Shown here: in pieces, positions 1-11,704 of the stretch
Layout: each line of letters starts with the position of its first letter
How positions within the stretch are numbered: position 1 is the first letter of the stretch
Origin: a bacterium
GTDB lineage: Bacteria; Acidobacteriota; Blastocatellia; HR10
Direction of reading: 5' to 3'
Assembly: GCA_041640655.1 (NCBI GenBank)
Contig: JBEPZV010000066.1
Coordinates: 1 to 11,704, forward strand
DNA length: 11,704 nt
Program-made: the position numbers and the translations under genes
The notes under the pieces: generated by a model
What the model was told of the DNA's origin: nothing
What the model saw: only the letters and a program-made list of their open reading frames with translations
The model's database searches: none

Positions 1-1124
1 TGGTGCAGGCGCTGCTGGCGTCGGGGAACGAGACCTTCTATCGCGAGGAGGCCGGACGCCGGTTCTACTTCGATCCGGCGGACGCGAGATATCGCGAGGA
101 GGAGCAGCCTCCCGGCCTCGTGCTCCTCTCCACCCTGAAGGCGCAACATCGTCTCATCCGCTCCAATCCGGGAGCGAGCCTCATTGATCTCGGCGATGGC
201 GTCGCGTGCGTGGAATTCCACTCGAAGATGAACACCATCGGCGCAGATACGGTACAGATGCTGCAATATGCGCTCGAGCGCCTCGCCGAAGGGGAATTCG
301 AGGGATTGGTCATCGGGAATCAGGGCGAGCATTTCTCGGCCGGAGCGAACCTGATGCTCCTGTTGCTCGCGGCTGAGGAGGAAGAGTGGGACGAGCTGGA
401 TCTGATGATCCGCGCGTTTCAGCGAACGAACCTGGCGCTGAAGTATGCGGCGCGTCCGGTTGTCGTCGCCCCGTTCGGCCTGACGCTCGGCGGAGGGTGC
501 GAGATCACGCTCCATGCGCCGAAGGTGCGCGCCGCGGCCGAGACCTACATCGGATTGGTCGAGACGAGCGTCGGATTGATCCCGGCTGGCGGAGGGACGA
601 AGGAGATGCTCCTGCGAATGCTCGAGCGCGCGCCGCGGGGAGACGCGGTGGATCTCTTCCCCTATGTCCGACAGGCGTTTGAGACGATCGCCCTGGCGAA
701 GGTCTCCGGCAGTGCGCACGAAGCGAAGCGAATGGGTCTGCTGCGTCCGAGCGATGCCATCACGATGAATCGCGATCGGCTCATCGCCGATGCAAAGGCG
801 ACGGTGCTGGCGCTCGCGCGCGAGGGGTATGAGCGCCTCGCTCCCCCCGCAGAGATCCCCGTGCTCGGCGAACCGGGGCTGGCGGCGCTCAAACTCGGCA
901 TCCACTTGGCGTGGCGCGCCGGACAGATCACCGAGTACGATGCGCACATCGGGCGGAAGCTCGCCTGGGTGCTCTGCGGCGGCGATCTGCGAACGCCGCG
1001 CGCGGTGACCGAAGACTATCTGCTCGATCTGGAGCGCGAGGCCTTCCTCTCGCTGCTGGGCGAGCCCAAGACGCGCGAGCGCATCCGCCACATGCTCACC
1101 GAAGGGAAACCGCTCCGGAATTGA
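1..1124 (+). CDS. fadN: 3-hydroxyacyl-CoA dehydrogenase/enoyl-CoA hydratase (FadN/YusL type), C-terminal crotonase part; 5' end outside window
   Basis: Open frame from the window edge to TGA at 1122-1124. Crotonase motifs FSAGANL, GGGCE and ETSVGLIPAGGG; C-terminus LLDLEREAFLSL...GKPLRN typical of FadN; directly upstream of thiolase and acyl-CoA dehydrogenase. Confidence 0.93.
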   Translation, partial: VQALLASGNETFYREEAGRRFYFDPADARYREEEQPPGLVLLSTLKAQHRLIRSNPGASLIDLGDGVACVEFHSKMNTIGADTVQMLQYALERLAEGEFEGLVIGNQGEHFSAGANLMLLLLAAEEEEWDELDLMIRAFQRTNLALKYAARPVVVAPFGLTLGGGCEITLHAPKVRAAAETYIGLVETSVGLIPAGGGTKEMLLRMLERAPRGDAVDLFPYVRQAFETIALAKVSGSAHEAKRMGLLRPSDAITMNRDRLIADAKATVLALAREGYERLAPPAEIPVLGEPGLAALKLGIHLAWRAGQITEYDAHIGRKLAWVLCGGDLRTPRAVTEDYLLDLEREAFLSLLGEPKTRERIRHMLTEGKPLRN

Positions 1125-1163
1125 GGCGAGCGATCGAACGTCCGTTACGCGAAGGAGGAAGAC

Positions 1164-2348
1164 ATGATGCGCGAAGCGGTGATCGTCGCAGCGGTGCGAA
1201 CAGCCGTCGGAAAGGCGCCCAAGGGAACGCTGCGCCACATGCGTCCGGACGACATGGCGGCCGTCGTGCTGGCCGAAGCCGTGCGCCGCGTCCCCGGACT
1301 GCATCCGGAGGAGATTGACGACATCATCCTCGGATGCGCCATGCCCGAAGGGGAACAGGGCATGAACGTCGCGCGCATCGCCGCCTTGCGCGCCGGCTTC
1401 CCCTATACGGTGCCGGCCATGACGGTGAACCGATTCTGCTCCTCGGGCCTGCAAACGATCGCGCTGGCGACGGAGCGGATCGCCGCGGGATTCGCCGAGG
1501 TGATCCTGGCCGGAGGGACGGAATCCATGTCGCTCGTCCCCATGGGGGGGTATAAGATCGCGCCCAATCCTTACCTCATCGAGCATTACCCAGACGCTTA
1601 TCTGAGCATGGGCCTGACGGCCGAGAACCTCGTCCGCAAATACGGCATCTCGCGCGAGGAACAGGATCGCTTCGCGCTGCGCAGCCATGAGCGCGCCATT
1701 GCGGCCATTGATGCTGGGAAGTTCCGAGATGAGATCGTCCCGCTGCGCGTCCCCATCGAGGAGATGGACGAACGCGGCCGCCCGCGCGTGCGGGAGATCC
1801 TCTTCGATACGGATGAGGGGCCGCGCCGCGATACCTCGTTGGAGGCATTGGCGAAACTGAAGCCGGTCTTTCACGTTGAAGGCACGATCACAGCCGGCAA
1901 CTCCTCGCAGATGAGCGATGGGGCGGCAGCCGTCGTCGTCATGTCGCGCGAGAAGGCGGAGGCTCTCGGCGTCCGGCCTCTGGGGCGACTCATCGCCTAC
2001 GCCGTCGCCGGCGTCCCTCCGGAGGAGATGGGTATCGGGCCGGTCGCCGCGATCCCCAAAGCGCTGCGCATGGCGGGACTGAGCCTGGACGATGTGGACC
2101 TGATCGAGTTGAACGAAGCCTTCGCGGCTCAAGCTCTGGCCGTCATCAAGCTCCTGGAGCTGGACGTGAATAAGATCAACGTCAACGGCGGAGCGATCGC
2201 CCTCGGCCATCCGCTCGGGTGCACGGGAGCGAAGCTGACCGCGACCCTGCTCTACGAGATGCGACGCCGAGGCGCCCGCTACGGCATGGTCACCATGTGC
2301 ATCGGCGGCGGCATGGGCGCGGCTGGGATCTTCGAGCGCCTACAATGA
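1164..2348 (+). CDS. fadA: Acetyl-CoA C-acyltransferase (3-ketoacyl-CoA thiolase)
   Basis: Thiolase motifs NRFCSSG (catalytic Cys), NEAF, GHPLG and CIGGGMG. Shine-Dalgarno AAGGAGG at 1152-1158; start is ATG 1164 or 1167. Confidence 0.96.
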
Positions 2349-2377
2349 GCGCATAACGGCGAAGGAGGAGACACGCT

Positions 2378-4162
2378 ATGACGAGACCTGAAGACGAGCG
2401 GATCAAAGGCGGCAGTTTCCTGATTCGTGAGGCCTCGCCCGATGAGGTCTTCACACCGGAAGATTTCACCAACGAGCACCGGATGATCGCGCGCACGGCC
2501 GAAGAGTTCATGGAGCGCGAGGTCGTGCCCCAGGCCGAGCGAATCGAGCATCAGGATTTGGAGCTGATGGTCGAGCTGCTGCGGCGCGCGGCCGAGGTGG
2601 GGTTGCTCGCGGCCGAGATCCCCGAACGTTACGGCGGATTGGGCCTGGATAAGGTGAGCGCGATGATCATCTCCGAGAAGCTCGCGGCCAACAGCTCCTT
2701 CGCCGTCTCTCACGGCGGGCATACGGGGATCGGCACGGCGCCCATCGTCCTCTTCGGCACGGTGGAGCAGAAGCGGAAATATCTCCCCAAGCTCGCCAGC
2801 GGCGAATGGCTCTCGGCCTATGCCCTCACCGAGCCCGAAGCCGGATCGGACGCGCTGGCCGGCAAGACGCGCGCCGATCTCGCCCCCGATGGCCGCCACT
2901 ATCTGCTGAACGGCTCGAAGATGTGGATCACTAATGCCGGATTCGCCCACATCTTCATCACCTTCGCCAAGGTCAACGGCGAACATTTCTCCTGTTTCAT
3001 CGTCCATCGGGATACGCCGGGGCTGACCATCGGCCCGGAGGAGAAGAAGATGGGCATCAAGGGCTCCTCGACACGAGCCCTTCTGTTCGAGAACGCGCGC
3101 GTGCCTGCCGAGAATCTGCTCGGCGAGATCGGCAAAGGGCATAAGATCGCCTTCAATGTCTTGAACCTCGGCCGACTTCGGCTGGGCGCCAGTTGCGTGG
3201 GGGGATGCAAGATCGGTCTGACGGCGGCTCTTCAATACGCGAAGCAGCGTCGCCAGTTCGGTCGCCCCATCTGCGAATTCGGTCTGATCAAGCATAAGCT
3301 CTCGGAGATGGCCATCCGAACCTGGGTGGCCGAGAGCGCCGTCTATCGCACGGCGGGCCTCATTGACGCTGCGCTCTCAGGGCTCGACGAAGATGACCAA
3401 CCGGCGCGCATGCAAGCCGTCGAGGAATACGCCATCGAGTGCGCGATCAATAAAGTCGTCGGGAGCGAGTTCGCCGATTACGTCGCCGATGAGGCCGTCC
3501 AGATCTTCGGCGGGAACGGCTACAGCGCGGAATACCCCGTCGAGCGCTACTACCGCGATGCGCGCATCAATCGCATCTTCGAGGGGACGAACGAGATCAA
3601 TCGTCTGCTCATCACGGGGATGCTCTTGCGGCGGGCCCTCTCAGGCCATTTGCCACTTCTGCCGGCCATCCAGCGGACGATGCAAGACGTGCTCGCCCCA
3701 TCGGCACCCGAGCTCGACAGCGAAAGCCCGCTAGAGCGCGAACGACGTCTGGTCGCTCAGGCGAAGAAGATCGCACTCTTGGTCGCTGGAGCCGCCGCGC
3801 AGAAATATCGCGAGCGCTTGACCGAGGAACAAGAGATCGTCGGCGCCATCAGCGACATGGTCATCGAGATCTTCCTCATGGAGAGCGCCCTGCTGCGCGT
3901 CCTGAAGCTGAGCGCGCGGCGCGGTCCGGAGTCATGCGCCGTGCAGCAGGACATCGCCCGCACGTACATTCACGACGCGATGGGGCGGATCGAGTTGCTC
4001 GCCCGTCAGGCCGTGAGCGCGCTCGCCGAAGGCGATGAGCTGCGCCTGCAGTTGGCGGCCCTGCGTCGCCTGTCCAAGTTCACCCCGATGAACACAATCG
4101 CCGCTCGACGCCGTATCGCCGACGCGCTCATCCAAGCCGGACGGTATATGTTGAGCGAGTGA
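2378..4162 (+). CDS. fadE: Acyl-CoA dehydrogenase, long (~590 aa) FadE/YusJ type
   Basis: YALTEPEAGSD, NGSKMWITN, KMGIKGSST, RRQFG, QIFGGNGY, IFEGTNEI (catalytic Glu); N-terminal KGGSFLI...FTPEDF and C-terminal extension as in YusJ-like enzymes. SD AAGGAGG at 2362-2368. Confidence 0.95.
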   Translation: MTRPEDERIKGGSFLIREASPDEVFTPEDFTNEHRMIARTAEEFMEREVVPQAERIEHQDLELMVELLRRAAEVGLLAAEIPERYGGLGLDKVSAMIISEKLAANSSFAVSHGGHTGIGTAPIVLFGTVEQKRKYLPKLASGEWLSAYALTEPEAGSDALAGKTRADLAPDGRHYLLNGSKMWITNAGFAHIFITFAKVNGEHFSCFIVHRDTPGLTIGPEEKKMGIKGSSTRALLFENARVPAENLLGEIGKGHKIAFNVLNLGRLRLGASCVGGCKIGLTAALQYAKQRRQFGRPICEFGLIKHKLSEMAIRTWVAESAVYRTAGLIDAALSGLDEDDQPARMQAVEEYAIECAINKVVGSEFADYVADEAVQIFGGNGYSAEYPVERYYRDARINRIFEGTNEINRLLITGMLLRRALSGHLPLLPAIQRTMQDVLAPSAPELDSESPLERERRLVAQAKKIALLVAGAAAQKYRERLTEEQEIVGAISDMVIEIFLMESALLRVLKLSARRGPESCAVQQDIARTYIHDAMGRIELLARQAVSALAEGDELRLQLAALRRLSKFTPMNTIAARRRIADALIQAGRYMLSE

Positions 4163-4316: not shown

Positions 4317-4392
4317 TGGCTCCTCAGGGAGGACTCGAACCTCCAACCCGCCGGTTAACAGCCGGCCGCTCTGCCAATTGAGCTACTGAGGA
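4317..4392 (-). tRNA. tRNA-Asn (anticodon GTT), 76 nt, CCA encoded
   Basis: Reverse complement TCCTCAGTAGCTCAATTGGCAGAGCGGCCGGCTGTTAACCGGCGGGTTGGAGGTTCGAGTCCTCCCTGAGGAGCCA: acceptor stem TCCTCAG/CTGAGGA, anticodon arm GCCGG-CTGTTAA-CCGGC, T-loop TTCGAGT, discriminator G plus CCA. Confidence 0.98.
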
Positions 4393-4590: not shown

Positions 4591-5622
4591 TCACCGCAAA
4601 GCGGCCTTGAGGACTTCCGTCTTCGTCTCCCTCCCGGTCGTGATGTGCCTCACGAAGTAGAGGAATCCATCGCGCCCAACCGCCTGCAAACTCCCCCAAT
4701 CATCCCCCACCGGGATCGGACGAACGCGCGCTCCATCTGGCGAAAGAAGATACAGCATATAGGTGAACGGGCGATGAAGGACCCACGATCCTCCCTTCAG
4801 CTCGCGCTTCTGCAACCGGCTCTCCTGCGCCACGACGGCCAGAAGGAGGTCGCCACCAATGAAGGCGAAGTGATCCACCTCCACCTTCCGACGGCCCCTC
4901 CCCGATCGCTCCACCTGCGCCTTGAGCTCCCCTAAGCTCAGGTCCTGCTCGTCCCACCTTCCTGCCTCCAGGGAGAATCGCTGAAGCCGCAAGGCCTCCG
5001 GATCGAGCCAAAACAGGTCCTGACCTCGGACGATCAGCCGCTGAGCCCGCGAGATCACACGCCCGATCCCCTCCGACTGATCGTTCGGAATCGTGGCCAA
5101 CACCCGCCCATCAGCCCCGATCCGATAAATCCACATGCGGGCTTCGGAAGCCTCGGCTTGTCCAGATGCCCTCGCACCGACCAGGAACACTTCTCCCCCC
5201 TCTGCCGGTTCTACGGCCCGGGCGATGAATTCGGGCACGTCGAAAGAACGACGCAGACGCCCTTCGGCATCGAAGATGAGCCCGCGCGTGACCAACCTGC
5301 CCGGCGTATCCGAGGCCCCACCGATGACCACCAACTCGCCGCTGGGAGCGATGCGAAAATCTATGAACCCCAGCAGTCGCTGCTCTCCGGGCCGCAACTC
5401 GAACACACGCTGGCCATCCGGCCGAAGCTTCACGATCGCCCTCGGAGAGCCCCAATAGAGCATCCCCGCGCGGTCAACCTCCAGATAGAAGAGACGGAAG
5501 CTCTCGGCAAGCACCCTCCGCTCAATGACCACCAGCTCCTGAGGAGAAGCGTGTGGCCACGCCTGACCCCCGAACATCGCGAGGATCACCAGCACATGCC
5601 TCGCTGCGCTTTTGCCCGACAT
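4591..5622 (-). CDS. Secreted hypothetical protein, probable beta-propeller (NHL/6-bladed-like)
   Basis: ATG 5622 preceded by GGAGG (5628-5632). Signal-peptide-like N-terminus (KSAARHVLVILAMFGGQAWPHAS). Recurring blade-like motifs: EVDRAGMLYW, KLRPDGQRV, IAPSGELVV, IFDAEGRL, RIGADGRVL, LLSPDG, VGRDGFLYF. Confidence 0.72.
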   Translation of the reverse strand: MSGKSAARHVLVILAMFGGQAWPHASPQELVVIERRVLAESFRLFYLEVDRAGMLYWGSPRAIVKLRPDGQRVFELRPGEQRLLGFIDFRIAPSGELVVIGGASDTPGRLVTRGLIFDAEGRLRRSFDVPEFIARAVEPAEGGEVFLVGARASGQAEASEARMWIYRIGADGRVLATIPNDQSEGIGRVISRAQRLIVRGQDLFWLDPEALRLQRFSLEAGRWDEQDLSLGELKAQVERSGRGRRKVEVDHFAFIGGDLLLAVVAQESRLQKRELKGGSWVLHRPFTYMLYLLSPDGARVRPIPVGDDWGSLQAVGRDGFLYFVRHITTGRETKTEVLKAALR

Positions 5623-6041
5623 AATCGCCTCCGACAATATCCCCCACCGAAGACCGACCCTCTGTCAGGATCGGCCCCGGAGGGCAAGCAATGTCGCGGT
5701 CATCTTCAGCCCATAATTCTCGGACGATGTTACTCTCCGCACAGAAGAGTGAAGCACAAAGATAAAGATTTTGCCAACATTGTCTACTCCCGAAGGGTAA
5801 GATTACCTCACAAAAGTAATTCGTGCACCGAACCTCCACACACGTTTACTCTCCATCTCTGGGTGGACAACATAAAGTATCTTGCGAGCGTCGTATATCC
5901 GCAGCCTCCTTGAAGCGCCGCCGATCTGGAAGAAGAAAGAGCCCGTGAAGCTGTCGCCGACGGACCCCACGCAATAGATGAAGCTACCAGGACCATCCCG
6001 ATGGCCGCGCCGCGTCGGAGAAACTCTCGCGTCAGGCGCAT
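5522..6041 (-). pseudogene. Small secreted Cys-rich peptide precursor, apparently frameshifted near 5837-5847 (77-aa ORF 5808-6041 plus Cys-rich continuation in another frame)
   Basis: Strong SD GAGGAGG (6050-6056) and ATG 6041. Signal peptide nearly identical to that of the ORF at 10969-11704. After QGG-CG the frame stops at 5808, but a second frame open from 5845 reads TCVEVRCTNYFC...QC...LC...FC...IACPPGP. Confidence 0.55.
5956..6006. repeat. Direct repeat copy 1 (signal-peptide-coding segment); copy 2 at 11654-11704
   Basis: Exact blocks gccgacggaccccac (5956-5970 = 11654-11668) and ccaggaccatcccgatggcc (5987-6006 = 11685-11704), same offset of 5698 nt. Confidence 0.9.
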
Positions 6042-6164
6042 GGCATCAACCTCCTCACGGTCGTTTCACACCACCTTGATGGCCCCAAGTCTACTGTCTG
6101 TCTGTCCAGCCCGTTTCTCACGGGCGGCGGGGGCCGACATGAGGACGGGCCCGACGCGCGCGAC

Positions 6165-6181
6165 CGCAAGGCGTGTTCCAA
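6165..6181 (-). promoter_or_regulatory. Putative sigma54 (RpoN) -24/-12 promoter
   Basis: Minus strand TTGGAACACGCCTTGCG against consensus YTGGCACGNNNNTTGCW; exact GG-N10-GC spacing; intergenic, about 125 nt upstream of ATG 6041, correct orientation. Confidence 0.55.
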
Positions 6182-6470
6182 GCCCCAGTGAACCTCCCCC
6201 CGCTCGCCTATCCGCGCGGGCTTTGGAGAACGCTCCGAGCTTGGCGAATCCAGAGACTTGCGCTACGATTGCCCAGCCTGTCGCACAGGCACTCTCGAAA
6301 CCTGATCTGTGGGGAACAACGCTTGAAACTCGTGGCCGCTTCTCAGGGCGTCTAGGGATCCTGAATCTGCTCGGTGGCGTCTTCGCCGATCGGCGAGCCG
6401 ATACTCCACATGCGTGAGTGCTTCAAGAGGCGATCTCCTCGATGACCCTCCCGGAGAACGGGAGAGCTCC

Positions 6471-7598
6471 TCATCCGCGACGAGCTCGCTCTGACGATCC
6501 AAAGACACGCTGAGACGCAGCGGCCTCAGAGTCGTCCTCAGGGCGAAGGGCACTTGCTGGGGAATGCCCCGCACGAATGTACCCCTGGCGATACCGCAGC
6601 TCCACATCTTTATATCTCTTCTTCGCCTGCGGCGAGAGCTCAACTTTGATCCGGCGAAGCCGCCCACCGCCGGTGATGTCTGTCGGTTCATAGCCCAGCA
6701 CATACCGCCCTCGGAGATCCTCAATCAATCGAGCGACTGCATCCACCTTCGGCGGCTCCCCCGGCTTGGCAGCCCCCATCCTCCCGCCCGTGATTTCCAC
6801 CAACTCGTCCATCCCAAACCCTTTAAAGAGAGGACGCCCCATCACCCCCCAAATGAACCGAACATAAAAGCGGCTGGTAACAACCCCAAACACCACGATG
6901 TCGCTTTCATAGAGTCGCTCCAGCACCTTCTGCCTGAGCTCTTGCCTCCTCTGCTCACTCATCCTGGGGTCTCCTTCGCCGAGGTTAAACGTGAACACGA
7001 GGAGGGCTCGACGACGCCCTCGTTCACTCGCGTGCAGCATATAGGTCACCGCCTCATAAATCGAGGTCCACAACAGACTATAATGAACATAGTACTCTCC
7101 CCAACATTTCTCCGACTGGTAAAGCTCCCAGCTCCTCTCCTTCGACGCCAGATCCTCCAAGATGTCCAGAATCGCCTCTTTTCGCGTGGTGAACTTTTGG
7201 ACCAGACAGGGGCCCCCCTGAAAGATCATCATCGCCACTTCGTCCTCCGGCCTCAGACGATCCAGGATCACACGAGCGGCACGAGCAACGTTTTCAAAGA
7301 ACCGAGCTTCCACCAGCAAGAGTAGCGACAGGGGGAGATCATCTTGACCGAAAAAGACGATCTTCTGCGGGATGCCTTCGTCGAACAAAACGAAGTCTTC
7401 CTTCCGTAGCCCAGCGACCGGTAAGCCCGTCTTTTTCGCCGTCACGGCAACGGGAACGAGAACGAGATCGGCTTTGAGATGCACGGGCGTTTCTTGAGCC
7501 ATACCACTTCGAGAGATCGGCCAGGCTCGCGAGAGGAGAAACGTCAGAATAATGGCGAGTAACCTCAGCCCTCGTGTCGGGCACGCCTTGATCACCAC
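6471..7598 (-). CDS. VWA domain protein, acidobacterial VWFA-related type, secreted, degenerate MIDAS
   Basis: Signal-like N-terminus; DLVLVPVAVT...G.PVAGLRKEDFVLFDEG.PQKI..F, PLSLLLLV, RRRALLVFT, ITGG, DLRGRYVLGYEP, RRIKVEL, RYRQGY match this family. SD GGAGGT at 7601-7606; GTG start at 7598 or 7595. Confidence 0.88.
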   Translation of the reverse strand: MVIKACPTRGLRLLAIILTFLLSRAWPISRSGMAQETPVHLKADLVLVPVAVTAKKTGLPVAGLRKEDFVLFDEGIPQKIVFFGQDDLPLSLLLLVEARFFENVARAARVILDRLRPEDEVAMMIFQGGPCLVQKFTTRKEAILDILEDLASKERSWELYQSEKCWGEYYVHYSLLWTSIYEAVTYMLHASERGRRRALLVFTFNLGEGDPRMSEQRRQELRQKVLERLYESDIVVFGVVTSRFYVRFIWGVMGRPLFKGFGMDELVEITGGRMGAAKPGEPPKVDAVARLIEDLRGRYVLGYEPTDITGGGRLRRIKVELSPQAKKRYKDVELRYRQGYIRAGHSPASALRPEDDSEAAASQRVFGSSERARRG

Positions 7599-7653
7599 CC
7601 ACCTCCCTGATGGATCAGATCAATCATTGTGAAAGGCTACAGGGACAGAGTGC

Positions 7654-7683
7654 CATGCGCAAGTGAGATTGGGCTTGCGCATG
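7654..7683. repeat. Perfect 10-bp inverted repeat with 10-nt spacer (hairpin or operator)
   Basis: CATGCGCAAG-tgagattggg-CTTGCGCATG between the 7726-8403 ORF and the VWA gene; no U-tract on either side. Confidence 0.6.
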
Positions 7684-7725
7684 ACGGGGCTTCCCTGAGC
7701 ACGTCTAAGTCACCCCCTCACCCGA

Positions 7726-8403
7726 TTAGAATAGCACACAGACAAACCGCTCTATGGCGGCCATCGTGATACAGGCGATCTCCGGAATTGTCGAGAGCGG
7801 GCCACACTCACCTTGTACAGTTCTCCAAAAACAGGCCGTGCAACTAACGTCATGACCGCAGTTCGATCCTCCCTGAGCAGATGGCAGAGCTCGTCCCCCC
7901 CAATAAGCGACGCTCACGGCCCGATTCCGCGTGATGATCCCAGAAGTGACTGTGCTGGATAAGGCGGATGGCCAACCTGGCGAGAAGAATCCACCGAGCA
8001 TCCTAAGCGCCACCAAAGCCGAACTTTGCTTCACCTCTTCGTACGGAACCGTCGCTATGAGAGAGCGAAGTGTGAAGAGAATCTCAGAGGCGGTGGAAGA
8101 TCTCACCTGCTCAACGAACGGCCGGTAGCCCGTTCTGATCCGCAGCGCGATATCGAGCTGCCGAGCCAGAGGAATGAGCCGGGCGTCGTCCGCGCCACTT
8201 GCGGCCAGACTTTTCAAGTCGTCTATCAACGATCGCGCTTTTTTGTCCAAGACGAAATGGAACTCGAGTCGGTCAAGCGATAACGTGATTCGAGGGTCTC
8301 TGTCTGTCCCTTGACCTGCTTCTGCTCGGAGGCCAACTCTCATCCGGCTTCGCGACTCGACGATCTGAACATCCATCAGCTCCGGGCAGGGAGAACCCCG
8401 CAT
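7726..8403 (-). CDS. Hypothetical protein with C-terminal six-Cys peptide after QGG; no signal peptide, possibly 5'-truncated
   Basis: 225-aa ORF filling the gap between ABC ATPase and VWA gene, co-oriented. Ends SAQGG-SNCGHDVSCTACFWRTVQGECGPLSTIPEIACITMAAIERFVCVLF. Start uncertain (8403 or 8376), no good SD. Confidence 0.65.
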   Translation of the reverse strand: MRGSPCPELMDVQIVESRSRMRVGLRAEAGQGTDRDPRITLSLDRLEFHFVLDKKARSLIDDLKSLAASGADDARLIPLARQLDIALRIRTGYRPFVEQVRSSTASEILFTLRSLIATVPYEEVKQSSALVALRMLGGFFSPGWPSALSSTVTSGIITRNRAVSVAYWGGRALPSAQGGSNCGHDVSCTACFWRTVQGECGPLSTIPEIACITMAAIERFVCVLF

Positions 8404-8406
8404 CCC

Positions 8407-9297
8407 CTAGCGCTCTTGATCCGTCTCCCTCAGGACGTAGCCGTAGATCTCCTCCAGACTGAGCGCCTCCACCTCGATCTCCACAAGCCCCGCCTCCCTC
8501 ACCCGATCTTCCATCCCCTCCTCCCACTGATCCGTCACCACCTGAACCCATCCTCTACCCTCCTCCTCCACAGCCACCCACTCCCGAAAATCGAGCCGAG
8601 GCTGCCCCACATATCGCCCCCGAATCCGACGCCAGTTTCGCCTCAGTCGCTCGCGACTCTCGATTCGCACCACCTCCCCCCGCCGCAAGAACACCACCCG
8701 ATCCGCCACACCCTCCACATCCGCTAAAATATGCGACGTCACTAAAACCCCGGCCCCCCACTCCCGCACAGCCATCCGCACCAGCTCCACACACTCCCGA
8801 CGCATCCCCGGATCCAACGCCGCCGTCGGCTCATCCAGCAGCAGCAAATCCCCCCTCGAGCTGAACGCCACCGTCAGCCCCAACTGCGCCCGCATCCCCT
8901 TGGACAACTCCCCCACCTTCTTCCTCTCATCCAGCCCAAATCGCCGCATCAACGCCTCAGCCCCCCTCCCATCCCACCTCGGATAGAACGCCGCACAAAA
9001 CCGCAACACATCCCTTACTCGTACTTGCCGAAACAACGGCGCCTCCTCCAGAAAAAATCCCATCCGCCGCTTGATCTCCACCTCGTGCCCCTCCAGATCC
9101 ATCCCCCAACACCGAATCCGACCCCCATCAGGCCTCACCAATCCCAGCACGCACCGCAACAACGTCGTCTTCCCCGAACCGTTCGGCCCCACCACCCCCA
9201 CCACCTCGCCCGAACGAACCCCCAAACTCGCCCGAAGCACAAAATCCCCATATCGCTTCTCCACCCTCTCCACCTCAAGCGCTACCCCGTCACACAT
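8407..9297 (-). CDS. ABC-2 type transporter ATP-binding protein
   Basis: Walker A GPNGSGKTT, signature variant LSKGM, Walker B LLLLDEP, H-loop TSH, C-terminal SLEEIY. ATG overlaps the upstream permease stop (ATGTGTGA). Confidence 0.95.
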   Translation of the reverse strand: MCDGVALEVERVEKRYGDFVLRASLGVRSGEVVGVVGPNGSGKTTLLRCVLGLVRPDGGRIRCWGMDLEGHEVEIKRRMGFFLEEAPLFRQVRVRDVLRFCAAFYPRWDGRGAEALMRRFGLDERKKVGELSKGMRAQLGLTVAFSSRGDLLLLDEPTAALDPGMRRECVELVRMAVREWGAGVLVTSHILADVEGVADRVVFLRRGEVVRIESRERLRRNWRRIRGRYVGQPRLDFREWVAVEEEGRGWVQVVTDQWEEGMEDRVREAGLVEIEVEALSLEEIYGYVLRETDQER

Positions 9298-9331
9298 ACG
9301 ATCCCTTCCGACGGAAGATCCAAACCCCTAC
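9254..9331. repeat. Diverged direct repeat (permease 3' end plus first 15 ATPase codons); second copy at about 10134-10211
   Basis: cgcttctccaccc...tcacacatacga...cttccg...gaagatc...cccta aligns without gaps at offset 880; encodes RKGSYV*/MCDGVALEVERVEKR versus RKRSYV*/MCEGMALEVEGVEKR. Confidence 0.88.
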
Positions 9332-10177
9332 ACAGAGAGTCAGAAGTGAAAGCCCCAAAAGAACCGCACCCACAAAAAACTGCCCTCTCACCGAAAAGAG
9401 GAAGGCCATGAGTTCCCACAAATGAGGTTCTAAAAGCGCCTGCACCTTCTCCTCGATGCGATCCGAGAGCAGGAGGAATCCCGGAAACTGCAGGCCTACA
9501 AATAGAGCCGCAATCATATAGCCGAGCACCGTCGGCGAATTCACGTTCATCGCGATCGTCAGCACAAGTGATGCGGACAACAAGGACATCACGAGGGTCA
9601 TCCACCCTACGGTGAAGGAGACAAGCGCCGAGGGAGCACCTTGCCCGATTAGGGTGAGCACAGCGACTGCAAATCCCGGCAAGGCTGAAACGAGAGAACC
9701 AATGACAGCAGCCAATACCGTTCCGAGAAAAAGAGCTTCCTTGCTGAGCGGGAGCACGCAAAGAAGCTGAAAAGATCCCTCCGCCTTCTCCCGGTGAATC
9801 ACGGCGGCCATTCCAAAGGGTACAATGATGGCCGCTCCCAGGGAAAAGACAGCCGCGAAGGAGAGCGAGAACCATGCCGACAAAGGCGGCTCCAACGTAA
9901 TGGAGAAAGCGAGCACACCCACCGCAAAGATGCTGAGGACTCCCAGGAGAACGAACATCATTCGCCGACACTGATGATCATCGAGAAGATAGTGCCTGAT
10001 GATTTCTTTCACCATCGGTGCCATGCACAGGTCCCCTATTTCGCCATAGAGCATACGACAAACGATCTCTCTGGGAAAGCCACTGAAACTCTGGCACAGC
10101 ACGTCCCGACGCCCACGAATGCCTCTCTCCTCCCGCTTCTCCACCCCCTCTACCTCCAATGCCATCCCTTCACACAT
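9290..10177 (-). CDS. ABC-2 type transporter permease, copy 2 (alternative start ATG 10024)
   Basis: About six hydrophobic segments; HREKAEGSFQLLCVLPLSKEALFLG matches the ABC-2 permease cytoplasmic loop motif; paralog of 10170-10931. The first 15 codons from 10177 copy the ATPase start; ATG 10024 has an AGGGG SD-like motif. Confidence 0.85.
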   Translation of the reverse strand: MCEGMALEVEGVEKREERGIRGRRDVLCQSFSGFPREIVCRMLYGEIGDLCMAPMVKEIIRHYLLDDHQCRRMMFVLLGVLSIFAVGVLAFSITLEPPLSAWFSLSFAAVFSLGAAIIVPFGMAAVIHREKAEGSFQLLCVLPLSKEALFLGTVLAAVIGSLVSALPGFAVAVLTLIGQGAPSALVSFTVGWMTLVMSLLSASLVLTIAMNVNSPTVLGYMIAALFVGLQFPGFLLLSDRIEEKVQALLEPHLWELMAFLFSVRGQFFVGAVLLGLSLLTLCVGVWIFRRKGSYV

Positions 10178-10931
10178 ACGACCTCTTCCGCGTGAAGATC
10201 TGAAGCCCTACAAACAGAATAAGAAGCGAAATCGCGAAGAGCATCGCCGCTGCCAGGAGTCGCCCTTCCACAGAAAGCGCAAGTTGAGTGAGTGCCTCAT
10301 CCAGAGGTGAAAGCACTCTCGCTTTGACGCGTTCTGGAAGGAGGGGTAAGATGGCTCCTGGGTATATCCCAAGAACGAGGAAGAAGATGACCACGTAACC
10401 GAGCACCGTCGGCGAATTCACGTTCATCGCGACGGTCATCATGAGCGAAGAGGACAAAAAGGACACCAGCAGGTTCGCCAACCCTAGGTAGGGTAAGAAG
10501 TTCCACTGCCCACCCCCTGCTGATAGAGTCAAGGCCAGGATCCCAATTACGTATCCCGGCAGAAACGCAATCACTGAACCTACAATCCCAGCCAGGACGG
10601 TTCCAAGGAAAAGCGTCCTCTTGGAGATCGGTAGCGCACAAAGGAACCCAAAGGAGCCTTCTGCCTTCTCTCGGTGAACGGACGCGGTTAGCATAAGAGG
10701 AGCGCCAAAACCGGTCCCGAGGCACGAACTGAACAACGTGATCCACAAAAACAGAGCCCCCCTTTCCCCTCGCCCGACAATGAGTGCAGTTGCGACGACG
10801 ACCATCAGGCTGAAGACACCTACTAGAGCCAATACGGATCTCCGACACGGGCGGTCGTCAAGCAGGTAGTGCTTGAGGATCTCTTTCGCAGCTCTGCCCC
10901 TGACAAACATCGCTAGCAGTATACATCTCAC
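10170..10931 (-). CDS. ABC-2 type transporter permease, copy 1 (likely start ATG 10910)
   Basis: About six hydrophobic segments; HREKAEGSFGFLCALPISKRTLFLG motif; shares HYLLDD..CRR and AMNVNSPTVLGY with the downstream permease. Confidence 0.87.
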   Translation of the reverse strand: MRCILLAMFVRGRAAKEILKHYLLDDRPCRRSVLALVGVFSLMVVVATALIVGRGERGALFLWITLFSSCLGTGFGAPLMLTASVHREKAEGSFGFLCALPISKRTLFLGTVLAGIVGSVIAFLPGYVIGILALTLSAGGGQWNFLPYLGLANLLVSFLSSSLMMTVAMNVNSPTVLGYVVIFFLVLGIYPGAILPLLPERVKARVLSPLDEALTQLALSVEGRLLAAAMLFAISLLILFVGLQIFTRKRSYV

Positions 10932-10946
10932 AGCCCGCCTGGTGAA
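10918..10946 (-). promoter_or_regulatory. Possible sigma70 promoter giving a leaderless permease mRNA
   Basis: TTCACC (10941-10946)-17 nt-TATACT (10918-10923)-7 nt-ATG (10910, in frame); no clear SD before that ATG. Confidence 0.35.
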
Positions 10947-10968
10947 AGATCAGGCCAACCGGCGTCAA

Positions 10969-11704
10969 TCAAGAGAGACACTCATCGCATGCAAGGACTA
11001 ACGAAATAGCGGCAATCCGGGACCCAACCAATGCCAGAACACAGCCTACGCCAAGAGTGGCACCACAACTAAAAAATAGACTGGCAACGCTTACTCCGTA
11101 ACCGGCGGCGGCAAGTCCGCATTCGAGCCACGAGCAGCCTGCTGCCATGACCTCCGGTAGGAATAAAGAGGCACTGCTGACAGGCCCTTGAGGAAGAGCA
11201 GCTTTCGCCGTTTGGACGAACCTCTGGGCCTCGCGAATCAGAGGAGCCATTCGACCCCTTTGCAACCCTTCAATGATGTGAAGGAGCCGAGGGAAATCCC
11301 TTTCAAGCTGTACTTCGCTGTCACTGATTGTTACCTCCTCGGGACCAAAGCCGATGGAGCTGAGTTGGAAGTAAGTGCATCCACCCAAATCGTGACCCGA
11401 TAGGCGGAGGGTGAAACGCTCCAGGCTGTGGCGCAGCTCAAGGACGCCGCCCGTCCGTCTCAATTCCGCGTGAAAGTCAAGCTCACCCTGTTCGCTATGG
11501 CGGTAGGACGCCATCACCTCCACACCTCCCTGGATCGGCTCTGCGACAATATCCATCACTTCCCAAGCCCCATTCTGCGATCGGAACAGGCGCACCGCCT
11601 TCTCCCCCATCGGGGTGACCGACACCTGCCCAGGCTGAGGCCGGCTTGACCGGGCCGACGGACCCCACAGGACAGACGAGGCCGCCAGGACCATCCCGAT
11701 GGCC
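10969..11704 (-). CDS. Secreted precursor-like protein with C-terminal 55-aa hydrophobic six-Cys hairpin (bacteriocin-like); 5' end outside window
   Basis: Frame open to the window edge (AIGMVLAASSVLWGPSA = signal peptide h/c region, homologous to the 6041 ORF). Beta-rich then helical middle domain, Pro/Ser linker, then AAG-CSWLECGLAAAGYGVSVASLFFSCGATLGVGCVLALVGSRIAAISLVLACDECLS. Confidence 0.8.
   Translation of the reverse strand, partial: AIGMVLAASSVLWGPSARSSRPQPGQVSVTPMGEKAVRLFRSQNGAWEVMDIVAEPIQGGVEVMASYRHSEQGELDFHAELRRTGGVLELRHSLERFTLRLSGHDLGGCTYFQLSSIGFGPEEVTISDSEVQLERDFPRLLHIIEGLQRGRMAPLIREAQRFVQTAKAALPQGPVSSASLFLPEVMAAGCSWLECGLAAAGYGVSVASLFFSCGATLGVGCVLALVGSRIAAISLVLACDECLS

Follow-up and report, generated by a model that had tools for sequence, protein, structure and literature searches.

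A putative disulfide-stapled helical hairpin as a candidate exchangeable toxin module of a precursor protein in Acidobacteriota

The stretch of DNA analysed here (hereinafter the window) has 11,704 nucleotides and is an entire contig (C66) of a genome from the Blastocatellia, Acidobacteriota. Its features are collected in Table 1. The segment under study, hereinafter designated the core, ends the 244-residue frame P0001, which is open at the contig end, and is followed by two ABC-2-type permease genes and an ABC ATPase gene.

Table 1. Features of the window
Feature	Positions	Strand	Remarks
Fatty-acid beta-oxidation genes (enoyl-CoA hydratase-like fragment, thiolase, acyl-CoA dehydrogenase)	3-4162	+	Named by eye from translations
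tRNA-Asn	4317-4392	-	Borders lower-GC stretch
348-aa secreted-looking protein	4591-5637	-	No family match; one paralogue on contig C2; 74% DNA identity to L022 gene
Repeat: upstream DNA and signal-peptide start	5997-6138	-	91% identical to bases 1-142 of contig C59; heads the 77-aa ORF 5808-6041
Acidobacterial VWA protein	6471-7598	-	TIGR03436 above cut-off
Second, unrelated precursor family with six-Cys tail, 5'-truncated copy	7726-8403	-	85% identical to residues 83-306 of full-length P0016 of G040
ABC ATPase	8407-9297	-	Best NCBIfam match PmtA-type, 167.5 bits (cut-off 350); without peptidase domain
ABC-2-type permease 2	9290-10177	-	Likely orphan partner of another core type
ABC-2-type permease 1	10170-10931	-	Directly after core; likely cognate protection subunit
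Six-Cys hydrophobic core, 55 aa and stop	10969-11136	-	Residues 190-244 of P0001; predicted helical hairpin, likely toxin
Linker, conserved junction at its end just before Cys1	11137-11187	-	pLDDT <50; putative cleavage and recombination point
Pro-domain, residues 24-172	11188-11634	-	Predicted antiparallel beta-meander of ~9-10 strands and two helices; predicted core binder
End of likely signal peptide	11635-11704	-	Gene leaves contig; start probably on contig C59

The precursor gene is truncated at its 5' end. P0001 begins inside a hydrophobic stretch, full-length relatives start with stretches that were judged by eye to be signal-peptide-like, and the complete protein of ~256 residues is probably exported. 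Contig C59 overlaps the window end by 10 nt and begins with a copy of the repeat in Table 1. With C59 and the window joined as we infer, the missing ~12 residues, likely the start of the signal peptide, probably lie at the end of C59. The X1 and X2 contigs reach just 10 nt beyond the window end. The 77-residue ORF headed by the internal repeat has a start nearly identical to the signal-like start of the precursor, followed by Gly-Gly and a short two-Cys tail. A ~140-nt leader repeat recurs several times in the related locus L022 and may be a recombination module. The whole stretch is present in four sequencing runs, three of them hot-spring metagenomes and all of them possible sources; no RNA dataset containing it is listed. 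Pfam and NCBIfam scans gave nothing meaningful for the precursor and its relatives, tblastn with P0001 and P0012 found no plasmid match, and promoter and terminator scans stayed at chance level.

The window from ~5500 to 11704, which holds the whole locus, is mostly 54-60% GC, compared with 63.7% for the genome. A genomic island would account for this lower-GC stretch beside tRNA-Asn. In G040 and G015, the related loci are cut by IS-like ends, and the 348-residue and VWA proteins recur beside these precursors in relatives. The second precursor family, whose six-Cys tail is variable, also occurs at L007 2752-3672 and L023 2316-3275; its copy in the window is without ~80 N-terminal residues, including the signal, and resembles an orphan cassette. 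A third precursor family (~230 residues; L022 1665-2357, L041 3358-3717) has a Cys-rich hydrophobic tail and is followed by several membrane ORFs of ~90-130 residues. At L022 4547-7775, an 87-residue hydrophobic ORF precedes Yip1, SpoIIM, ABC ATPase and permease genes, a candidate circular-bacteriocin-like cluster, since circular-bacteriocin clusters contain such a set.

Upstream of the precursor, contig C59 carries a CxxC redoxin gene, probably shared with another peptide, and a gene for an unannotated, weakly TPR-like (solenoid) protein of ~550-700 residues. We do not count either as a dedicated partner of the precursor, because both lie behind another small Cys peptide in L022 and the source genome has seven solenoid paralogues (on C59, C9, C91, C45, C25, C19 and C51). 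A Cys-rich ORF (8-30 Cys, mostly with a signal-like start) lies upstream of each of the six solenoid loci outside C59, adjacent in five and ~1 kb away in C45, and several of these loci have redoxin-like genes alongside. This arrangement suggests a system, present across the lineage, that serves exported Cys-rich peptides.

Translation of the core places Cys at positions 1, 6, 24, 32, 50 and 53. The two arms, C6-C24 and C32-C50, both span 18 residues and flank the loop C-GATLGVG-C. Arg40 is the sole charge inside the arms, with E5, D51 and E52 outside. The translation thus reproduces the Cys positions, the equal arms, the Gly-rich loop and the single arm charge of the original prediction. Hydropathy reaches 2.2 over 19 residues, in two long hydrophobic C-terminal stretches. 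Because at least six Cys in the last 55 residues are found in just 5 of the 2957 six-frame ORFs of at least 300 aa in the source genome, the Cys pattern is not chance; the core is a genuine feature under selection. The AlphaFold2 model of the core (10 sequences) has helices at residues 3-26 and 30-54, with pLDDT of 75 and pTM of 0.47, in agreement with the helical hairpin proposed earlier.

Searches for the family returned 1, 12 and 17 proteins. A core profile matched 12 of 301 class genomes, 4 of 401 phylum genomes and 3 of 7 genomes in the genus; the core is absent from four genus genomes that are 94-98% complete, and its distribution is therefore patchy. These figures describe the family within Acidobacteriota, sampling beyond the phylum being poor. 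A literature search made without most subscription journals found no description of the family.

The arrangement of Cys residues across the family bears on the disulfide bonds. C6, Y13, C24, C32 and C50 are invariant in 19/19 aligned relatives, as is the alignment column that holds C1. The outer Cys, numbered from C6 and C50, are found at -7/-3 (in one case -9/-4) with +3/+6-7 in 11 of 24 cores, and only at -7 with +7 in 12 of the 24. The core of G619 has four Cys, with no outer Cys on either side. In all 25 of 25 cores, the number of outer Cys is equal on both sides. Partial P0011, P0010 and P0013, decayed P0008, frameshifted-looking P0006, near-duplicate P0004 and G073/P0028 were excluded from these counts, and the near-duplicates P0009, P0020, P0024 and P0027 were further left out of the tree. 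On this mostly weakly supported tree, switches between six and eight Cys number most simply four, at least two of which are forced by well-supported branches. The joint gain and loss of outer Cys on both sides supports a nested disulfide ladder, so the pairing in the original prediction is backed both by conservation and by mirror-symmetric variation, and the bonds C24-C32, C6-C50 and C1-C53 are its putative rungs.

The window core, with outer Cys at -5 and +3, differs from all other cores compared and is the least symmetric member. Two residues are deleted and the C-terminus is shorter, and one Cys has thereby been lost on each side, so that C1 and C53 remain. The position of C1 outside the predicted helix makes pairing of these two plausible; owing to the asymmetry, theirs is the least certain of the three bonds. 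Since a spacing of 18 corresponds to five helical turns, the Cys of each arm fall on one face. The cores have GRAVY of 1.05-1.80 and net charge of 0 to -5, and a His or Arg is found mid-way along arm 2 in 24/24. Judged from codon changes, the core is conserved in sequence within one type: compared with the window, a strain from another study has six listed core differences, all synonymous, and 10 of 20 changed codons upstream are synonymous (listed differences, 38 of that contig's 51).

Comparison of related loci indicates that cores are exchanged. L021 and L022 are 98% identical, and L021 has a ~1.1-kb insert that begins just before the core and carries a different core with its own permease. 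The old core of L021 persists as a 96-residue orphan ahead of the old permease. Pro-domain and core identities are 88 and 29% for L021/L022, 62 and 32% for window/G040, 38 and 72% for window/L024, and 37 and 66% for G040/L022. Exchange of the tip, with orphan tip-plus-partner cassettes as in polymorphic toxins, is thus found both between L021 and L022 and between the window and G040.

The permeases take part in this exchange. A permease lies 3' of the core in 7/7 cores compared. The one behind the different core of G040 has 96.5% DNA identity (286 nt) to permease 2 of the window, and the strain from the other study keeps the window core, skips 880 nt and has no permease 2. This match and this absence suggest that permease 1 travels with the window core and that permease 2 is a retained orphan. 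The G040-type permease groups with partners of the related L021/L022 core (58%; FastTree support 0.987), and core type B accompanies one permease clade (FastTree 0.987). Strict core-permease pairing is broken: the window and L024 cores are 72% identical, but their permeases are just 44% identical and do not group. The source genome has two permease copies, both at this locus, and of five relatives negative for the core, one has a permease. The permeases may also serve other peptides, because G015 has a permease and an ATPase without a core match, beside a different Cys-rich ORF. At nine other loci, a hydrophobic ORF of 88-113 residues follows the core, directly (four) or past a solenoid gene (five); five of these ORFs are homologous. 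When the source genome was searched with a profile of these small membrane proteins, no counterpart emerged (best E 0.22). From this gene arrangement, permease 1 likely protects the producer from the core.

The core is also found at the ends of Rhs/YD proteins. In G571, a 1772-residue S8 (subtilase)-Rhs protein has TIGR03696 at 1604-1701 and DPxG at 1697, and the core Cys span 1704-1761 with gaps of 7, 17, 8, 18 and 7, directly behind the Rhs self-cleavage motif. TseI is cleaved straight after the equivalent motif, as described in PMC7170923; by analogy, cleavage there in G571 would release a peptide whose third residue is Cys. In G619, the four-Cys core ends a 1924-residue Rhs protein, with ~135 residues between Rhs core and hairpin; behind this gene come a gene for a small membrane protein and an orphan Rhs fragment that has a different tip. 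The core is also carried by a third YD protein (G073), and the C-terminal end of the near-identical P0028 (742 aa) matches it. These matches are distant, at 17-23 bits; specifically, the tips of G571 and G619 score 17.1 and 23.3 bits, and the best of 2000 shuffles reached 12.1 and 11.8, respectively. One of the searches bearing on G073/P0028 was confined by its alignment to proteins of 572-2000 residues. A position at the C-terminus of Rhs/YD proteins is thus seen in G571, G619 and G073/P0028, and together with the exchange described above suggests that the core behaves as a polymorphic-toxin tip. Rhs fusion and exchange are the strongest evidence for the proposed function, and both come from relatives that the original prediction did not take in.

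The full-length AlphaFold2 model contains a beta-meander (residues 27-125) and helices (130-169), mostly with pLDDT of 85-94; residues 174-244 are largely below 50. Neither model had a Foldseek match at E≤0.001, and a PDB profile search, with a profile diluted by full-length rows, gave nothing under E 0.16. No fold is assigned to the pro-domain, because the best VIA-align hit (Z 7.5, rmsd 5.2, 105 aligned) is at the level of a generic beta-meander. A profile alignment of the two main pro-domain types has probability 98, to which the core contributes much; other than that, the pro-domains of P0012 and G487 look unrelated to the rest by alignment.

With residues 24-172 and 190-244 as separate chains, complex prediction gave 0.63, compared with 0.01 for the best control, with contact agreement of at least 91% and partner pLDDT of at least 68. 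Of 157 solved complexes, 116 attain the mark used, as do 2 of 215 mismatched pairs; for the present alignments, these counts are only rough. In the predicted complex, the core sits in the pro-domain beta-sheet, and arm 1 packs on alternating sheet residues and both helices. The predictors disagree on how confidently the core packs, its pLDDT being below 50 in the full-length model. The predicted complex supports a role of the pro-domain in carrying and shielding the core until release. The pro-domain had been proposed at the outset as a chaperone or immunity domain. The chaperone part is in line with the predicted cradle, but specific immunity is less likely than a general carrier function, because the domain stays 88% identical while the core is swapped for a 29%-identical one. 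The permease is the better candidate for specific immunity, since the downstream gene changes and one pro-domain is kept with cores that are unlike each other.

Taken together, these sequence comparisons make it likely that the core is a toxin, probably an undescribed antibacterial one, carried as a module by a bacteriocin-like precursor that is exported. The precursor would be exported via its signal peptide, and the core would be oxidised in the periplasm, with C24-C32 and C6-C50 followed by C1-C53. The pro-domain would carry and shield its own core, as its predicted packing suggests, until a protease cleaves 0-3 residues before Cys1; no maturation protease was identified in the locus. The two helices, each of ~27 Å, would then enter the inner membrane of related target bacteria, and the permease and ATPase would remove the core from the producer's own membrane. 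If the core is a toxin, we give an even chance, by analogy with SDP, to killing through an ion or proton leak, perhaps via the invariant Tyr and the mid-arm His or Arg. The core may alternatively act through a receptor. Unlike cationic pore-formers, the cores are neutral to acidic, a point against a toxin.

In its widest form, the proposal is an Acidobacteriota family of disulfide-laddered, non-cationic membrane toxins, delivered by Rhs proteins or by a beta-sheet cradle, in which, in this genus, a variable ABC-2 subunit confers allele-specific immunity and is swapped, and collected as orphans, with each tip. We advance this tentatively, at slightly less than even confidence.

Kinship to halocin C8 is the first alternative. 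The precursor could be a remote member of the halocin C8 or Gram-positive C8-like group, with the pro-domain itself as the immunity protein. The overall layout with three downstream ABC genes and the predicted binding of the core by the pro-domain fit such kinship, and language-model neighbours include PF27906 Gpos_C8-like clusters (0.78 and 0.84-0.85), which are at lead level only. However, TIGR04449 (halocin_C8_dom) has no match at E≤1 in the source genome, and none in 301 phylum genomes or 19 family members, and one pro-domain is common to very different cores. TIGR04450/PF27906 gave no hmmscan match, the genome search being without a responding control, and Pfam has no match, including HalI-like, for the N-terminal domain. 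Bacterial C8 proteins also miss PF22862 though they share its predicted fold, as stated in bioRxiv 10.64898/2026.07.27.741052. On balance, we regard this combined reading of kinship and pro-domain immunity as unlikely.

Somewhat less probable still is a role of the released core as a strain-specific signal or kin-recognition peptide, exported or sensed by the permease or the small membrane protein. Variable cores with cognate membrane genes fit pheromone cassettes as well, the core is not cationic, and the source genome has several other secreted Cys-rich ORFs, with no role assigned to them. Three Rhs/YD proteins nevertheless have the core where their toxin would be expected, the window shows neither a sensor kinase nor a regulator beside it, and conflict systems typically include orphan cassettes of a core and its partner.

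The hairpin could also be an uncleaved two-helix membrane anchor for the periplasmic beta-sheet domain, consistent with the two long hydrophobic stretches and the lack of a protease gene in the locus, cleavage itself being a proposal. With the N-domain exported, the loop of such an anchor would face the cytoplasm. Cytoplasmic loops of membrane proteins are as a rule basic, yet this loop lacks basic residues, and two invariant Cys close it off. Because of this, and because the orphan core, the swapped core beside an 88%-identical domain and the Rhs caps would go unexplained, an uncleaved anchor is very unlikely; the predicted burial of the core in the pro-domain also speaks against it. Binding of a metal or iron-sulfur cluster by the core Cys, suggested by the CxxC at both ends of eight-Cys members, is the least probable reading of all, since both CxxC are missing in the 12 of 24 cores with outer Cys only at -7 and +7, one core has just four Cys, Cys loss is mirror-symmetric, export of the protein is probable, and genes for CxxC redoxins are found close to loci of this kind.

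Little is known of antagonistic proteins in the Acidobacteriota, an abundant phylum, and the core is a defined toxin candidate from it. Two near-identical strains that differ only by a core-plus-permease swap provide natural allele pairs, and one shared tip links unmodified bacteriocin precursors with Rhs toxins. ABC transporters in immunity are usually viewed as broad protection, a view that would be extended if immunity genes that are swappable and specific to one allele prove to encode ABC permeases. A heat-tolerant, enzyme-free, stapled hairpin of 55 residues would also be easily made and assayed as an antimicrobial scaffold.

The original prediction pointed to glycocins as a parallel. Glycocins such as sublancin and glycocin F have nested disulfides and thiol-disulfide oxidoreductase genes, as PMC12457901 describes. 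The parallel with the core is one of shape, a putative nested disulfide hairpin, with CxxC redoxin genes near such loci as well. The locus has no S-glycosyltransferase (TIGR04195, SunS type; the best in the genome is a 28.9-bit partial match on another contig, cut-off 350) and no C39 peptidase-ABC transporter, the ATPase being stand-alone, accompanied by ABC-2 permeases and without a C39 domain. Membership of the glycocins is ruled out by these absences. In addition, the window precursor differs in its large pro-domain, which is folded, and in helices that greatly exceed those of glycocins in length and hydrophobicity.

With Rhs/YD tips, the core shares the C-terminal toxin position, the orphan tips and the adjacent small membrane genes. 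It differs in being a hydrophobic, Cys-stapled hairpin and not an enzyme, and most members of the family, including that of the window, use an exported pro-domain of ~170 residues and not an Rhs shell.

SdpC and YitM have a shared N-part, a variable hydrophobic C-terminal toxin that begins at a Cys and specific membrane immunity, and SDP collapses the proton motive force, according to PMC6818787. The precursor resembles SdpC/SDP and YitM/YIT of Bacillus subtilis in its likely signal peptide, pro-region and hydrophobic tail that starts at a Cys and varies among homologues, and differs in that the family has three to four nested Cys pairs. TIGR04032 (SdpC) matched nothing at E≤1 in the source genome and none of 19 family members, and an NCBIfam scan found no SdpA- or SdpB-like genes among nine window sequences and two C59 proteins. 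With TIGR04449 failing likewise, HMM membership of either the halocin C8 or the SdpC family was rejected, controls responding (in the source-genome searches, above the cut-off in 1 of 14 for each model).

The closest analogy for the window precursor, as proposed originally, is the halocin C8 type. Halocin C8 has a pro-domain, a C-terminal antimicrobial part, three downstream ABC genes and Rhs fusions, as described in bioRxiv 10.64898/2026.07.27.741052 and PMC11509114. The window precursor likewise has a large N-domain, a small Cys-rich C-terminal part, three downstream ABC genes and Rhs fusions in its family, its export being judged by eye from relatives. The family differs in its Acidobacteriota hosts, in its core of 55-62 residues (76 in halocin C8), in its mirror-symmetric ladder of four, six or eight Cys, and in the swapping of cores as cassettes together with a permease. 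By analogy, the core probably works like halocin C8 or SdpC, although by HMM it belongs to neither family.
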